Assembly (NCBI GenBank): GCA_019923605.1
Contig: JAHXGM010000001.1
Coordinates: 398 to 64,397 of the forward strand
Direction of reading: 5' to 3'
Source: Candidatus Nealsonbacteria bacterium
Lineage (GTDB): Bacteria > Patescibacteriota > Minisyncoccia > Minisyncoccales > CSSED10-335
DNA length: 64,000 bases
Shown here: positions 36,334-63,816 of the stretch, one piece after another
Position numbering within the stretch: position 1 is the stretch's first letter
Layout of the letters: each line of letters opens with the position of its first letter
Notes under the pieces: generated by a model
Told to the model about the DNA's origin: nothing
Database searches by the model: none
Seen by the model: the letters and a program-made list of their open reading frames with translations, nothing else
Translations under genes and position numbers: made by a program

Positions 36334-36404
36334 CGCGGGGTGGTGGAGTAGTACCATATGAGGCCCATAACCTTAAGGCACCGGTGCAATTCCGGTCCCC
36401 GCAA
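36334..36404 (+). tRNA. Initiator tRNA-fMet (anticodon CAT)
   Basis: 5' CGCGGGGTGG... and 3' ...CCCCGCAA, as in the E. coli initiator. C1:A72 mismatch, anticodon loop CCCATAA (CAT, with C33); CCA not encoded. Confidence 0.8.
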
Positions 36405-36415
36405 CAATAATTATT

Positions 36416-36488
36416 GCCGGCATAGCTCAGCGGTTAGAGCAACAGACTCATAAGCTGTAGGTCGGAGGTTCGATCCCTCCTGCCGGCA
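36416..36488 (+). tRNA. tRNA-Met (CAT), elongator; Ile2-lysidine cannot be excluded
   Basis: GCCGGCA...TGCCGGC acceptor, D-arm GCTCAGCGGTTAGAGC, anticodon loop CTCATAA, T-loop GGTTCGATCC. Confidence 0.8.
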
Positions 36489-36494
36489 TATTCC

Positions 36495-36568
36495 GGGGGC
36501 GTAGATCAATTGGTTAGATCGCCACTCTGTCACAGTGGAGGTTGCCGGTTCGAGTCCGGTCGTCCCCG
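36495..36568 (+). tRNA. tRNA-Asp (GTC)
   Basis: Cloverleaf with acceptor GGGGGCG/CGTCCCC, anticodon loop CTGTCAC (GTC), T-loop TTCGAGT. Confidence 0.8.
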
Positions 36569-36575
36569 CATAAAT

Positions 36576-36743: not shown

Positions 36744-39700
36744 ATGGATAAAGAAAATAAAAAAGAATATACTTCTAAAGATATTTTTGTTTTAGAAGGG
36801 TTAGATCCGGTTCGTAAGAGACCTGGAATGTATGTTGGTTCTACTGGACCAGATGGTTTGCACCATCTAATCAAAGAATGTCTTGATAACTCTTTAGATG
36901 AGGCAATAGCAGGTTATGCTAAAAATATAGAAATATCCTTATTGCCTAATAATCGAGTTAGTGTTACTGATGATGGGCGAGGAATTCCGGTAGATGTTCA
37001 TGCCCAAACTAAGAAATCTGCCCTTGAGACAGTTATGACTACTTTGCATGCCGGAGGTAAATTCGGAGGAGATGCTTATAAAATATCGGGAGGATTACAT
37101 GGAGTGGGAATTTCTGTTGTTTGTGCTCTTTCTAATTTTTTAAGAGCAGAGGTATCAAGAGATGGTTTTAAATATTCTCAAGAATATGTAAAGGGAAAGG
37201 TTAAAACGAAATTAGTAAATGAAGGCAAGACTAATAAAAGGGGAACTACGATTATATTTGAGCCGGATGTTGAGATTTTTAAAGACATAACATTTAACGC
37301 TAAGAAAATAATTAGTAACCTTCGACAACAAGCCTATCTTACTAAGGGAACAAGGATTACTTTTAATGATTTGCGTGATTCAAAAAATGAAAAGAAATAC
37401 TTATTTTATTTTGAAGGAGGAATTTTATCTTATATTAAACACTTAACCAGGGGGATTCAAAAACAACATCCCAACATCTTTTATTGTTTCGGAAATAAGG
37501 ATGAAGTTATTACCGAAGTATCTTTTGTTTACACGGAAGAGTTTGAGTCCTACGAGGAGAGTTTTACTAATAATATAATTACTAAAGAGGGGGGCAGTCA
37601 TCTTACCGGTTTTCGCTCTGCTCTTACAAGAACCCTAAATGATTATGCAAGAAAGAATGGTATCCTGAAGTCTGGTGATGATAATCTTAGTGGAGAGGAT
37701 GTTAGAGAGGGATTAACTGCAGTTGTTTCTGTTAAAATAAGGGAACCTCAATTTGAAGGTCAAACTAAGGGGAAATTAGGAAACCCTGAGGTAAAACCTG
37801 CGGTTGAAGTTGTAGTTTCTGAAGCATTGACTGACTTTTTTGAGAGAAATCCTCAGGATGCAAGGAGTATTGTTGAGAAATGTTTAATTTCTTCAAAGGC
37901 AAGAAAAGCTGCTCGAGCAGCAAGAGAGACTGTTTTAAGAAAGGGAATATTAGAAGGACTTTCGTTACCGGGGAAGCTATCTGATTGTAGTTCCAGGAAG
38001 CCTGAAGAATCAGAACTCTATATTGTGGAGGGAGATTCTGCCGGAGGGTGTTTTTCAGGAGATACAGAAGTTGCTCTAGTAGATGGGAGAAGCTTGTCTT
38101 TTAAAAATCTTATCAAAGAGGAAAAACAAGGGAAAAGAAATTACTGTTACACCATTAAAGACGATGGTACGGTTGGCATAGAATTAATTACTCATCCAAG
38201 AAGAACCAAGAAAAACGTAGAGGTAATAAAGGTTATTTTAGATAACGGAGAAGAGATTACTTGTACCCCTGATCATAAATTTATGATGAGGGACGGCTCT
38301 TACAAAGAAGCAAGGAATATCGACACTCAAGACTCTTTAATGCCACTAAATAGAAAGTTTTCTGAAATAGGAAATGGGATAACCATTAAGGGGTATGAAA
38401 TGATTTTTGATAATAAAAATGGAAAATGGATTTTTATACATCTTTTATCAGACAAGTATAATCTTGAGAAAGGGAAATATTTGAAAAAAGATGGATCTGA
38501 CAGGCATCATATTGATTTTGACAAACTAAACAATAATCCAGAGAATATAAGGCGAATGACGAAAGAAGATCATTTATGTCATCACAGAGAGATGCTAAAG
38601 TATGGTCTTCATCGAGAAGATGTTAAAGATAAATGTAGAAAAAAAAGACAAACAAAAGAATACAGAGAAAAGATTAGTGCGATTATGAGTACTCCGGAAA
38701 TGAGAGAGATGTTAAGCAAGAGAGCAAAAAAGCAGTGGGAAAATGAAGAATATAAGAATTTTATGGTAAGTAAATTTCTGGAATTTTATGAGGCAAATGA
38801 AAAGTATCGGGAAAGAAATCGTAAGGCTTTATATAATAATCAAAAGGAGTATTGGGGCGACTCTGAAAATAGAAAAAAACAAGCGAAAAAAATAAAAGAA
38901 TATTTTGAAAATAATCCTGAAAAAAAGGAAAAACTTGTCATGGAAGCAAAGAAGCAATGGAAAGACGAAGAGTTATTAAAGTGGAGGGCTCAAGAAACTA
39001 AGAAGCAGTGGACACCCGAATTTAGAAAAAGAAGAAAAGCTTCTTATGATAATACATATAGAGAAAAGGCATTGAAATTAATGAAGGAGATTGTTGAAAA
39101 CAATGGAGAGATAGACAAAGGGAAGTACAACCAAAAAAGAATTGAGCTAAGAGATAAGAGTATTTTGCGATATGACACTATTTGTGAACGTTTTTTTGAG
39201 AACAAAGAAGAAAAATTAAAAGAGGCTGTTGCGAATTATAACCACAAGGTAAAAAGAGTTGAGAGACTTCAAGAGAAAATAGATGTTTATGATATTGAAG
39301 TTAAAAAGACTCATAACTTTGCTTTATCTTCTGGCGTCTTCGTTCATAACAGTTGTAAAGGAGCAAGAGATAGAAAGTTTCAAGCAATACTTCCATTAAA
39401 GGGAAAGATTTTGAATGTAGAAAGAGCTCGTTTGGATAAGATACTAGCCTCAAAAGAAATTAAGTCACTTATAATTGCGCTTGGTACTGCAGTAGCAGAA
39501 GATTTTAACATTAATAAGCTTAGATATCATAGAATTATTATTATGAGCGATGCTGATTCAGATGGAAATCATATTAAAACTTTACTTTTAACTTTGTTTT
39601 ATAGATACTTTAGACCATTGATAGACCTGGGTTATCTTTATGTCGCACAGCCTCCTCTGTACAAAATTCAAGCCGGTAAGAGGGTGGAATATGCCTATAC

Positions 39701-39983
39701 AGATGATGATAAGAGAAGAGTTCTGGACTCTATGAAGAAGGATAAGGATGAAGATAAGGTTGCAGGTTTGAATATTCAAAGATATAAAGGTTTGGGAGAA
39801 ATGAATCCTTCTCAACTTTGGGAGACTACTATGAATCCTGATAATAGGATCTTAATAAGGGTTGAAATTGAAGATGTGAAAGAGGCAGATAGGATGTTTG
39901 ATGTTCTTATGGGAGAAGAAGTTCTTCCAAGAAAAAAATTTATTCAAGCTCATGCCAAAAAGGTAAGCAATTTAGATATTTAG
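36744..39983 (+). CDS. gyrB: DNA gyrase subunit B, interrupted in frame by a 434-aa intein
   Basis: GHKL ATPase N-terminus and the Toprim motif IVEGDSAGG. That motif is split by an in-frame insertion which is followed by [26 protein letters not shown]. Removing the insert gives a canonical 645-aa GyrB. Confidence 0.9.
   Translation: [1079 protein letters not shown]
38049..39350 (+). mobile_element. Intein in GyrB (Cys1 ... His-Asn, +1 Ser) with an HNH homing-endonuclease domain and a Lys/Glu/Trp-rich repeat region
   Basis: Starts with Cys directly after EGDSAGG (block A CFSGDTEV, block B TCTPDH). Ends ...[14 protein letters not shown] with Ser as the +1 extein residue. Internal HNH-like [29 protein letters not shown]. 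Length 1302 nt, in frame. Confidence 0.85.
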
Positions 39984-52916: not shown

Positions 52917-55900
52917 TTAATTTTCCAATATTTCTTCCGCTTGGTCACAAATTATTTTTGGAGCGCCATCTCTATGATCTATTTTGCCGGTTATAAAGGC
53001 AATCTTATTTTCTTCAAATACAGAAAGATTTTTTTTCATAGTAGTTGAGAAAACTATAATCTCAATTTTATCAGTCAAATCTTCAAGGCTGACAAAAAGC
53101 ATTGGTTTACCAGATTTTGTAATTATTTTTTTAACTCCAGAAATAATTCCACCAACTCTAATCTTTTGTCCAGATATTGATTTCTTGGCATCAACTAAGG
53201 ATGTTGATCCTTTTCCTAGCACAGCTCGGAAATCATCTAGGGGATGGCTGGTTACAAAAAGACCAAGTAATTCCTTTTCCCATCTTAGCTTATCGCTTCT
53301 TAAAGCCAATGGCGCATTTTCTAGATTAATTTCTTCTTTACTAAAACTACTTTTAGCGAAAAGGGTAGATTGACCATTCAATTTATTCTTATTTAACTCT
53401 CTGGCTCTTTCAAGAATAATATTGATATTAGATAATATTTTATTCCTGTCCATCATCGAATCAAAAACTCCAGCCTTAGTTAAGTTCTCAAGAGACTTTT
53501 TGTTTAAATTTTTAGTTTTAACTCTATTAATAAAATCATTCAATGATTTAAAGTGACCATTCTTTTTTCTTTCCTTAACTATTGCTTCCGTAATCGCCAT
53601 CCCAACATTTTTAATTGCCGCAAGACCAAAGCGAATCTGTTTTTTGTTTGGAACCACACTGAAGAATACATAGCTTTCATTTATGTCAGGAGGGAGTACT
53701 TCAATCTTCATTCTTTTGCATTCCTCGATAAGGAAAGAAATTCTTTCAATATCTTTTCTATCTGAAGTTAGAAGAGATGACATAAATTCACAAGGGTAAT
53801 GCGTCTTAAGGTATGCTGTTTGGTAAGCGATAGTGGCATATCCTGCCGAGTGGCTTTTATTGAAACCATAGCTAGCAAAGGGCATTATCCATTCCCATAC
53901 TTGTTTAGCGACTTCTTTTTGTACACCATTTTCTGTAGCACCATCAATGAACTTGTCTTTTTGTTTCATCAAGAGCTCTCTGTTTTTTTTACCCATCGCC
54001 TTTCTTAATACATCAGCTTCAGCCAATGAAAAGCCTGCAAGATCTTGAGCAATTCTCATTATTTGTTCTTGATAGATGGGGATAGAATATGTTTTTTCAA
54101 GTATTGGTTTTAATTTAGGATGGATATATTCAACTCTTTTTTCTTTATTTTTTCTTGCGATATAGTCAGGGATCAGCTCCATTGGACCGGGCCGATACAA
54201 AGCTAATATAGCAATAATATCTTCAAATTCAGTTGGTTTTAATTGTTTTAAATATCTTTGCATTCCTCCCGATTCTAATTGAAAAATACCAATGGTTTCT
54301 CCTTTCTTTAGAATGTCATAGGTCTTTTTATTATCTAGAGGAATTTTTCCTATATTAATTTTTTCTCCTCTTATGACATATATCTTCGCTAAAGTATCTT
54401 CAATGATAGTCAGGTTTTTAAGTCCCAAAAAATCCATTTTAAGCAATCCAAGACTTTCAATTGATTTCATTTCATATTGAGTGACAATGCCATCTTCATT
54501 TTGACTGGGGTGTTGTAACGGAACAATTTCGTCTAATGGATCCTTAGAGATTACCACTCCACAGGCATGAGTAGAGGCATGTCTTGCCACACCTTCTAGT
54601 TTCTTGGCTATATCGATTAGTTCTTTTGCTTTGGAATCATTATCGTAGAGTTCTTTAAACTCAGAAACATTTTCCAATGTTTCAGATAGTGATAATCCAA
54701 AGGGGACCATTTTAGCCATTAAATCACAGTATAAATATGAATAATTAAGGGCTCTTCCCACATCTCTTATTACAGCTCGAGCAGCCATTGTTCCAAAAGT
54801 AATAATTTGAGCGACTTTATCGTGTCCGTATTTATCAGCAACATAGTGGATTACCTCATCTCTTCTTCTATCGGCAAAATCAAGATCAATATCAGGCATT
54901 GATATTCTTTCTGGATTTAAAAATCTTTCAAATAGTAGATCATATTTAAGCGGATCTATATCAGTAATATTTAGTAAATAGGCGACTAATGATCCTCCTA
55001 CCGATCCTCTTCCTGGCCCCACTATTATTTTATTATTCTTAGCCCAATTAACTAAGTCTTGGACAATTAGGAAGTATGAAGCAAAGCCGGTTTTTTTAAT
55101 AACTTCTAATTCATAATCAAGTCTTTCCATTACTTTTTCGGGAAGATGTTCTTCGCATTTACCTTTCATTCCTTCTAGGCAAAGCTCTCTAAGATATTCA
55201 TTGTATTCTTTTTTTTCAGGAAGGGGGAATGATGGTAATTTTGTTTCGTCAAATTTGAATTCAAAATTACATAGGTCTTTTATTTTCTGTGTATTCTTAA
55301 TTGCTTCGGGAACATCTTTAAAATTATCTGCCATTTCTTCGGGTGACTTAACCGAGAAGTCGTTGTCTTTCATGGTTAATCTTTCCGGATCATTTAATTT
55401 CGCACCAGTATTTATTAACATCAAAACATCTTGAGCTTCTAAGTCTTCTTTTCTTAGATAGTGGCAATCATTTGTAGCAACAAGAGGTATCCCGGTTCTT
55501 TTTGATATTTCTATTAATCCTTTATTAGCGATTACTTGTTCTTTTATATTAGGATGACTTTGTAGTTCAAGATAAAAGTTTCCTTTTCCGAATATTCTTT
55601 GATATTTTAAAGCGGTTTCTTCTGCTTCTTTAATTTTGTTATTAATTACTAGTCGGGGAATTTTTCCTTGTATGCAAGCTGAGAGTGCGATAAGGCCTTC
55701 GGAATGTTTTTCCAATAAATCTTCATCGGCACGAGGTTTATAGTAATATCCTTCGAGATTAGCTTTACTAACTAATTTTACTAAGTTTTGATAACCCTTA
55801 TCATTTTTAACTAACAAAACCAAATGATGTCTTTTGTCATCAATATTGGGTCTTTTTTGGTCCATGGATTCTAAGGCCACATAGACTTCACAGCCTATTA

Positions 55901-56084
55901 TCGGCTTGACCCCTTTTTCTTTAGCTTTCTTAACAAATTCAACGGCTCCGTATAGGACGCCGTGATCAGTTAGGGCGATTGAATCCATGCCCGATTCTTT
56001 TACATAGTCTAAAAGTTCATCAATTTTTGATAAACCATCTAGCAGAGAATAATGTGAGTGAACATGTAGGTGAGTAAAATCCAT
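52917..56084 (-). CDS. dnaE: DNA polymerase III alpha subunit
   Basis: PHP domain N-terminus (HLHVHSHYSLLDG), polymerase core, 1055 aa. Confidence 0.93.
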   Translation of the reverse strand: MDFTHLHVHSHYSLLDGLSKIDELLDYVKESGMDSIALTDHGVLYGAVEFVKKAKEKGVKPIIGCEVYVALESMDQKRPNIDDKRHHLVLLVKNDKGYQNLVKLVSKANLEGYYYKPRADEDLLEKHSEGLIALSACIQGKIPRLVINNKIKEAEETALKYQRIFGKGNFYLELQSHPNIKEQVIANKGLIEISKRTGIPLVATNDCHYLRKEDLEAQDVLMLINTGAKLNDPERLTMKDNDFSVKSPEEMADNFKDVPEAIKNTQKIKDLCNFEFKFDETKLPSFPLPEKKEYNEYLRELCLEGMKGKCEEHLPEKVMERLDYELEVIKKTGFASYFLIVQDLVNWAKNNKIIVGPGRGSVGGSLVAYLLNITDIDPLKYDLLFERFLNPERISMPDIDLDFADRRRDEVIHYVADKYGHDKVAQIITFGTMAARAVIRDVGRALNYSYLYCDLMAKMVPFGLSLSETLENVSEFKELYDNDSKAKELIDIAKKLEGVARHASTHACGVVISKDPLDEIVPLQHPSQNEDGIVTQYEMKSIESLGLLKMDFLGLKNLTIIEDTLAKIYVIRGEKINIGKIPLDNKKTYDILKKGETIGIFQLESGGMQRYLKQLKPTEFEDIIAILALYRPGPMELIPDYIARKNKEKRVEYIHPKLKPILEKTYSIPIYQEQIMRIAQDLAGFSLAEADVLRKAMGKKNRELLMKQKDKFIDGATENGVQKEVAKQVWEWIMPFASYGFNKSHSAGYATIAYQTAYLKTHYPCEFMSSLLTSDRKDIERISFLIEECKRMKIEVLPPDINESYVFFSVVPNKKQIRFGLAAIKNVGMAITEAIVKERKKNGHFKSLNDFINRVKTKNLNKKSLENLTKAGVFDSMMDRNKILSNINIILERARELNKNKLNGQSTLFAKSSFSKEEINLENAPLALRSDKLRWEKELLGLFVTSHPLDDFRAVLGKGSTSLVDAKKSISGQKIRVGGIISGVKKIITKSGKPMLFVSLEDLTDKIEIIVFSTTMKKNLSVFEENKIAFITGKIDHRDGAPKIICDQAEEILEN

Positions 56085-63365: not shown

Positions 63366-63448
63366 GGGTAGGTGGCAGAGTGGACAATCGCTCTTGGCTG
63401 TAAACCAAGCGCCTTCGGGCTACGGGGGTTCGAATCCCTCCCTACCCA
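63366..63448 (+). tRNA. tRNA-Tyr (GTA), long variable arm
   Basis: Acceptor GGGTAGG/CCTACCC, anticodon stem-loop CTTGG-CTGTAAA-CCAAG, variable arm GCC-TTCG-GGC, T-loop TTCGAAT. Confidence 0.8.
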
Positions 63449-63463
63449 CAATACTTTGGGGGC

Positions 63464-63535
<72 letters not shown>

Positions 63536-63554
63536 CAAGATAAAAAACAATATT

Positions 63555-63728
63555 ATGGCTACAAAAACAAAGAAAAAATCATACGTAAAATTTCAGTGTT
63601 CTATATGCAAAAGAATTAATTATCTTCTTAAGAAATCAAAGGGAACAGTTCCTGATTCAAAACTAGAACTTAAGAAGTTTTGCAAGTGGTGCCGTGCTCA
63701 TAAAGATCATAAGGAAACTAAGAAATAG
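63555..63728 (+). CDS. rpmG: 50S ribosomal protein L33
   Basis: Not in the ORF track. The frame translates to MATKTKKKSYVKFQCSICKRINYLLKKSKGTVPDSKLELKKFCKWCRAHKDHKETKK: a zinc ribbon C..C...C..C with the L33 motif KLELKK(F/Y)C. Confidence 0.85.
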   Translation: MATKTKKKSYVKFQCSICKRINYLLKKSKGTVPDSKLELKKFCKWCRAHKDHKETKK

Positions 63729-63734
63729 TAAAAC

Positions 63735-63806
63735 GGGGGTGTGGTGTCAATGGTAGCACAACGGTCTCCAAAACCGTTAGTCTAGGTTCGAATCCTTGCA
63801 CCCCCG
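63735..63806 (+). tRNA. tRNA-Trp (CCA)
   Basis: Acceptor GGGGGTG/CACCCCC, anticodon stem-loop ACGGT-CTCCAAA-ACCGT, T-loop TTCGAAT. Confidence 0.75.
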
Positions 63807-63816
63807 CTCTTTATAT

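Follow-up and report, generated by a model that had tools for sequence, protein, structure and literature searches.

The gyrB gene in a 64,000-nt stretch of contig JAHXGM010000001.1 (Candidatus Nealsonbacteria bacterium; "the window" below denotes this whole 64-kb stretch) carries a 434-residue in-frame insert within the Toprim motif EGDSAGG-S of DNA gyrase subunit B. We consider it very probable that this insert is a canonical class-1 bifunctional intein of the Ssp GyrB type, predicted from its sequence both to splice itself out of the precursor and to cleave DNA. The Ssp GyrB intein is the natural intein of Synechocystis PCC6803 GyrB (PMC3443213). The anatomy and fold of the insert, its in-frame and colinear exteins, the conservation of its catalytic residues and its family membership were established directly; splicing and DNA cleavage are the activities proposed for it. 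All coordinates are window positions, intein residue numbers count from Cys1, and the positions of the features can be seen in Table 1.

Insertion point and exteins

The gyrB reading frame is unbroken over 3240 nt, its translation showing no stop and no frameshift. A preliminary description of this DNA had reported a gyrB open reading frame of 1079 codons with an insert between EGDSAGG and Ser, and both its coordinates and its statements on the sequence are correct. In translation, the intein begins with CFSGDTEV, reads EEITCTPDHKF inside and ends in ALSSGVFVHN; Ser follows, as the first residue of the C-extein flank SCKGARDRKF. The precursor scores 902 bits against the model NF004189 (DNA gyrase subunit B; cut-off 740). 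Excision of the 1302 nt gives a 645-residue product, which is gap-free across the junction in alignment with Escherichia coli GyrB (7z9c_B). This product passes the NCBIfam gyrB equivalog model TIGR01059 with 895.5 bits (cut-off 882.4), whereas the unspliced precursor fails with 870.5 bits. The gap-free alignment and a TIGR01059 threshold that is passed only after excision bear out the earlier claim that removal of the insert restores a colinear 645-aa GyrB. At the DNA level, the junction of this gyrB after removal of the intein reads GTGGAGGGAGATTCTGCCGGAGGG followed directly by AGTTGTAAAGGAGCA. Either a lack of Hint-domain similarity or a frameshift or stop blocking the extein fusion had been named as evidence that would speak against an intein, and neither was found.

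No further gyrB- or parE-like sequence was found within the 64-kb window, in line with the earlier remark that this is the only visible gyrB, and an exact-sequence look-up of the 1079-aa protein gave no identical entry on record. The exteins are nearest to those of metagenome-assembled genomes of Nealsonbacteria, Jorgensenbacteria and Saccharibacteria (65-70% identity). Together with the best intein matches described below, this makes a member of the Patescibacteria the probable host. The C-extein starts with SCK (Cys codon at 39354..39356) where nearly all relatives and E. coli read SAK, and the Toprim acidic motif is DADSDG, the usual form being DADVDG; both are minor substitutions specific to the host and near the splice junction. 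The Toprim acidic region IIIMSDADSDGNHI is intact in this gyrB, and the gene carries a single intein. A second intein was considered and ruled out, both the DADSDG motif and the ATPase domain being uninterrupted.

The splicing module

The insert is a class-1 intein of the HINT superfamily with a complete set of splicing residues, from which splicing would be expected. The Pfam model Intein_splicing (PF14890) matches with E=1e-23, the match being divided between the two ends of the insert (aa 17-434), and the NCBIfam models intein_Nterm (TIGR01445, aa 1-79) and intein_Cterm (TIGR01443, aa 412-434) score 46 bits (cut-off 24.5) and 27.9 bits (cut-off 15.6), respectively. These scores, together with the 767 database homologues described below, place the identification as an intein far above chance. 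They also agree with the preliminary description, in which the splicing blocks (Cys start, TCTPDH, VFVHN then Ser) were held to be complete.

Counts of conservation, insertion site and size refer here and below to the best 80 of at least 572 confirmed genomic loci carrying a relative of the intein; the intein could be delimited in 78 of them. Block F reads DVYDIEV..THNFAL and contains D415, and block G is GVFVH433-N434. The residues D415, N423, F424, H433 and N434 are invariant in all 78 relatives, and a HINT fold is built from the N- and C-terminal segments. Cys72 (38262..38264), which directly precedes the block-B Thr73 and lies outside the canonical splicing motif, is likewise invariant (78/78). 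A structural role and a role as redox partner of Cys1 are both possibilities for this residue.

A search of PDB sequences with the intein returned DnaE mini-inteins alone, at weak E-values; neither a GyrB intein nor an HNH intein with a solved structure was found. The preliminary description had also named mycobacteria as carriers of inteins at this gyrB site; the mycobacterial gyrase intein encountered here sits in GyrA (1am2).

The HNH endonuclease domain and its helical extension

The middle of the intein consists of an HNH (I-HmuI-like) homing-endonuclease domain and a helical extension, the nuclease activity being predicted from sequence. The HNH domain had been overlooked in the preliminary description, whose interpretation is thereby incomplete. 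HNH_3 (PF13392; gathering threshold 24.8) scores 22.8 bits on the full-length intein and 25.1 bits on aa 110-201 alone, and 13 of 23 family members match it at E<=0.01. Two PHROG families of HNH endonucleases match aa 107-186 (E=2e-6 and 9e-6). In the structural model, aa 151-183 form the strand-strand-helix of a beta-beta-alpha-metal site, and the model is similar in structure to a solved HNH homing endonuclease. The motif H153-H154-x-D-F-(N/D)-K-x-N-N-N-P-x-N166...R169...H175...H179 is kept in 77-78 of the 78 relatives, with H153, H154, N162 and N166 present in all of them and H175 and H179 in 77.

The helical extension is conserved across bacteria and archaea and is without a Pfam family; matches to TetR-like folds are weak. 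It is presumably a DNA-binding module, uncharacterised so far. Scanned against Pfam at E<=10, the helical region (aa 188-398) returned noise only. NUMOD-like repeats were considered for this region and found no support. Neither a LAGLIDADG motif nor a LAGLIDADG family was detected in Pfam scans of the intein or of its middle region, even at E<=10. The HNH domain and the helical region together make up the extra ~290 residues that account for the size of the intein.

Distribution and conservation of relatives

We searched 5.8 billion proteins with the intein and obtained 767 homologues, of which 120 are listed. The best match has E=2e-168, and the top ones span 100% of the intein at 50-60% identity. 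Named matches are annotated as "intein-containing DNA gyrase subunit B" of Parcubacteria/Patescibacteria, Nanoarchaeota, Woesearchaeota, Methanosarcinales, Chloroflexota, Omnitrophota and cyanobacteria, the best intein matches coming from Paceibacterota/Parcubacteria. A complete intein at the same site is present in 38 of the 120 listed proteins. A genome scan with the intein alignment, using one genome per species for 185,579 species, yielded the at least 572 confirmed loci in species-representative genomes.

In the best 80 loci all 434 residues of the query are covered at 51-61% identity, with almost no insertions or deletions. Cyanobacteria with an intein at this site were seen among these loci, namely Pannus (L030), Trichormus (L056), Pleurocapsa (L065 and L072) and Nostocales (L076), as had been anticipated for cyanobacterial gyrB. 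The closest relatives (L002 and L003) share ~61% intein identity with the query. With no relative found above ~61% identity, the element is a new sequence within an intein allele that has long been known and is now very widely annotated. Of the 117 alignment columns with at least 90% conservation, the query departs from the consensus at 3, which is also the family median (range 0-9). The copy in the window is therefore a typical and undecayed member.

The preliminary description had called the intein unusually large, which does not hold. Sizes in the delimited loci range from 429 to 436 aa and 434 aa is the commonest (31 loci), the lone value of 489 aa among the 78 loci being a mis-anchored pattern match. 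Likewise, 31 of the 38 complete inteins in listed proteins measure at least 425 aa.

The junctions follow a single pattern in 77 of the 78 delimited loci, with G(D/E)SA(G/A/S)G before the initial C of the intein and S after its terminal HN; in L013 they are shifted by one codon. This locus lies in a gammaproteobacterial metagenome-assembled genome (CAZHDT010000020.1, intein at 1361-2662). Its intein, of the same family, begins with CF and ends in VFVHN followed by CKMGR, so that it is inserted one codon downstream of the usual position between GG and S, with Cys as the +1 nucleophile. Its spliced sequence GGSCK would equal the spliced sequence in the window.

Some relatives have further inteins in gyrB. 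Extra inteins of the LAGLIDADG type were seen in L028, L040, L050, L060 and L065 (C-exteins of 759-921 aa) and in L012 (N-extein of 828 aa). They are located in the Toprim motif between IIM and (T)DADVDG and, in L012, in the ATPase domain directly before NSLDEA. GyrB thus has at least three intein sites. Outside gyrB, the model NF052663 (RtcB_rel_intein2, an intein-containing RtcB family protein) matches intein aa 1-434 with E=1.7e-39, which indicates that a related intein is present in RtcB-like proteins.

Mobility and age of the element

The identity of the intein to the query and that of the N-extein to the query are uncorrelated (Spearman rho 0.11, p=0.36, n=71). Identity to the query is 55.1% for archaeal and 54.5% for bacterial inteins, and 50.2% and 55.4% for the respective exteins. 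This decoupling of intein and extein identity is consistent with horizontal spread. In 77 loci, the DNA flanking the intein reads GTnGArGGnGAyTCnGCnGGnGGn upstream and AGnGCnAAr downstream of the insertion point, with conservation confined to codon positions 1 and 2. An invariant gyrB target of this sort is the kind that allows elements to cross phyla.

The GC content is 32% for the intein, 34-36% for the host gene and 34.8% for the window. As the intein is close to its host in this respect, the copy in the window would be no recent arrival; a compositional anomaly, considered as a sign of recent acquisition, was not found. A DNA repeat scan revealed no flanking duplications or repeats around the intein. 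Alternative open reading frames across it, sought on both strands, are antisense only and at most 53 aa long.

Proposed mechanism

Once translated, the HINT halves at the two ends of the intein (aa 1-105 and 398-434) would fold together. Splicing would then begin with an N-S acyl shift at Cys1, helped by the block-B residues Thr73 and His76, to give a thioester, which Ser+1 would attack in a trans-esterification leading to a branched ester. Cyclisation of Asn434, helped by His433 and the block-F Asp415, would free the intein, and an O-N shift would leave a peptide bond between Gly435 and Ser. Two products are expected, namely GyrB of 645 aa with its Toprim site intact and the 434-aa intein in free form. 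The freed intein, through its I-HmuI-like HNH nuclease and its helical DNA-binding extension, is then expected to nick or cut an intein-free gyrB at the conserved junction, and recombinational repair from the intein-bearing copy would spread the element (homing).

Because the insertion parts the catalytic Toprim Glu E429 from the DADSDG cluster, the unspliced protein should be unable to cleave and religate DNA. Splicing must be efficient if the genome has no other gyrB.

Evaluation of alternative explanations

Several points weigh against a bifunctional intein of the Ssp GyrB type. Both the splicing and the cleavage ascribed to this copy are read from its sequence. The HNH_3 score is marginal, being under the gathering score on the whole protein and only 0.3 bit over it on the domain alone. 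At HNH position 158 the query has Asp where 72 of the 78 relatives have Asn, and at position 130 it has Ile where 97% of relatives have Thr. No GyrB intein of the HNH type is known to us to cleave DNA, and the HNH domain of this family appears to be biochemically uncharacterised. The loci used in the decoupling test had been pre-selected for the highest intein similarity, which compresses the range and weakens the test. Finally, the link to PCC6803 rests on the published C-terminal hexapeptide, on the cyanobacterial isolates in the family and on the 435-aa size of the Ssp GyrB intein.

In a sub-variant of the same reading, for which the marginal HNH_3 score also speaks, the intein splices and its HNH domain no longer works as a homing nuclease. 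The element would then be a vertically inherited passenger or would have another role, such as DNA binding or a conditional, stress- or redox-gated maturation of gyrase. Long residence is suggested by the GC content of the intein (32%), which lies near the values for its host gene (34-36%) and for the window (35%). Moreover, conservation over the full intein matches that of the essential exteins (51-61% vs 46-70% identity), and the extra Cys C72 is invariant in all 78 copies. However, the catalytic and metal positions of the HNH domain are kept in 77-78 of 78 copies over two domains of life, as selection for a nuclease predicts; the decoupled similarities of intein and exteins imply transfer and thereby homing; and no evidence for conditional splicing was obtained. 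On balance we regard loss of the nuclease as unlikely. We consider it more doubtful still that the element exceeds a parasite, either as an active HNH homing element moving between bacterial and archaeal episymbionts or as a co-opted conditional-splicing switch (for instance redox- or DNA-state-dependent) that gates gyrase maturation. The basis of this idea is that the whole intein, including the helical region and C72, is conserved like the exteins in bacteria of the candidate phyla radiation (CPR), DPANN, methanogenic archaea and cyanobacteria.

Two further explanations concern the gene and the assembly. A dead gyrB, with a decayed or non-splicing HINT insertion and a working gyrB elsewhere in the genome, would be compatible with the fact that just 64 kb of genome are in view, but it is very improbable, given that the 3240 nt contain no stop or frameshift, that all splicing residues are intact with deviations at the family median, that the exteins pass the gyrB equivalog threshold, and that in hundreds of genomes no form of gyrB other than this one is visible at the locus. 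The smallest chance of all is given to a chimeric contig that would join gyrB halves and an intein from different organisms. Both junctions are in frame and exactly at the canonical site, base composition is continuous over them, the nearest relatives give consistent identities for the N- and C-exteins, and the same architecture was assembled independently in at least 77 genomes; all this stands against the probable origin of the window in a metagenome-type genome, the lack of an identical protein on record and the many fragments among database relatives.

Genomic context

The window is an ordinary piece of a small-genome bacterial chromosome, with fusA, ribosomal protein genes, alaS, gatA, gatB, nusG, rplK, dnaE and a P-type ATPase. 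DnaE is among the commonest intein hosts; here dnaE (DNA polymerase III alpha, 1055 aa; 52917..56084, minus strand) is intein-free. The 183-aa open reading frame listed in Table 1 shares 13 nt with the end of gatA, and its product looks membrane-anchored.

Table 1 Features of the gyrB intein locus and of its surroundings in the 64-kb window
Feature	Position	Strand	Remarks
gyrB precursor open reading frame, intein included	36744..39983	+	1079 aa plus stop; HATPase_c, DNA_gyraseB, Toprim and DNA_gyraseB_C domains
N-extein, aa 1-435	36744..38048	+	ATPase and transducer domains, start of Toprim; colinear with E. coli GyrB as far as VEGDSAGG
EGDSAGG, aa 429-435, end of N-extein	38028..38048	+	Contains catalytic Glu E429
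Intein, 434 aa, precursor aa 436-869	38049..39350	+	1302 nt, 434 codons without stop; between EGDSAGG and SCKGARDR
N-terminal splicing (HINT) half, intein aa 1-105	38049..38363	+	TIGR01445; beta strands with predicted local distance difference test (pLDDT) >90 in the model
Block A, Cys1	38049..38051	+	First-residue nucleophile; invariant in 78/78 relatives
Block B, T73-P-D-H76	38265..38276	+	TxxH; T73 and H76 invariant in 78/78 relatives
HNH endonuclease domain (nuclease activity predicted), intein aa ~106-185	38364..38603	+	HNH_3 and PHROG matches, model
Beta-beta-alpha-metal core, H153-H154...N162..N166...H175...H179	38505..38585	+	Conserved in 77-78/78 relatives
All-helical extension, intein aa ~186-397	38604..39239	+	~210 residues; 4-5 degenerate repeats of 16-20 aa ending in QW/YW
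C-terminal splicing half, intein aa 398-434	39240..39350	+	TIGR01443 match
Ser+1, second nucleophile	39351..39353	+	First C-extein residue
C-extein, 210 aa plus stop	39351..39983	+	Remaining Toprim including acidic DADSDG motif; GyrB C-terminal domain
Open reading frame, 445 aa	26550..27887	-	No Pfam match at E<=1e-5
Open reading frame, 183 aa	35730..36281	+	No Pfam match at E<=1e-5; directly upstream of tRNA cluster and gyrB
tRNA cluster Met-Met-Asp	36334..36569	+	Three genes, ~175 nt upstream of gyrB start
Open reading frame, 535 aa	51301..52908	-	No Pfam match at E<=1e-5
tRNA cluster Tyr-Thr-Trp	63366..63807	+	Window end

Implications

The gene should be annotated as "intein-containing DNA gyrase subunit B", its mature product having 645 aa. 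Such genes are often split or called partial by automated pipelines, as many "partial" database entries show. Beyond annotation, the finding is of little importance, this element being present in hundreds of bacteria and archaea at an identical site and with an identical size. To the Ssp GyrB intein, the mini and split forms of which serve as protein-ligation tools, it adds another diverged natural variant (~60% identity). The family is spread over CPR bacteria, DPANN archaea, methanogens and cyanobacteria in a pattern decoupled from the history of the host gene, and may thus be of use as a marker of gene flow.

Comparison with known systems

Dalgaard et al. 1997 (NAR 25:4626) is reportedly the first report of an intein with an HNH endonuclease, and we take the intein concerned to be the Ssp GyrB intein, of 435 aa. 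The query shares with the Ssp GyrB intein the host protein GyrB, an identical GVFVHN followed by Ser+1, and the Cys1/Ser+1 residues of class-1 chemistry. The six last residues of the Ssp GyrB C-intein have been given as GVFVHN, followed by the native extein residues SA (PMC2794532), and the natural, mini and split forms of this intein splice in E. coli (PMC3620165). The two differ in the host, which is cyanobacterial in one case and probably of the Patescibacteria here, in the +2 extein residue, which is Ala (SAK) there and Cys (SCK) in the window, and in about half of their residues. As cyanobacterial proxies, the inteins of Pannus brasiliensis (L030) and Trichormus sp. NMC-1 (L056) have 435 aa, lie at the same site between GG and S and are 51-53% identical to the query over the full length.

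Surveys list GyrB inteins in bacteria and archaea (PMC4760082), and a published tree of GyrB inteins joins candidate phyla, Archaea and Cyanobacteria (PMC6390638). The GyrB inteins of Parcubacteria/Patescibacteria, DPANN archaea, Methanosarcinales and Chloroflexota have the site, the size (429-436 aa) and the domain order of the query at 51-61% identity. No structural difference separates them from the query, which is merely not identical to any of them.

I-HmuI (PDB 1u3e) is a free-standing, intron-associated phage HNH homing endonuclease that nicks one strand. The HNH domain of the query, in contrast, is embedded in a HINT scaffold, has 17% identity to I-HmuI and is followed by a much longer, unclassified helical extension. 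The LAGLIDADG-type inteins, such as PI-SceI, PI-PfuI, PI-PkoII and the second or third gyrB inteins of the relatives, belong to another endonuclease family, and those in gyrB occupy other sites of the gene (Toprim DxD and the ATPase domain).

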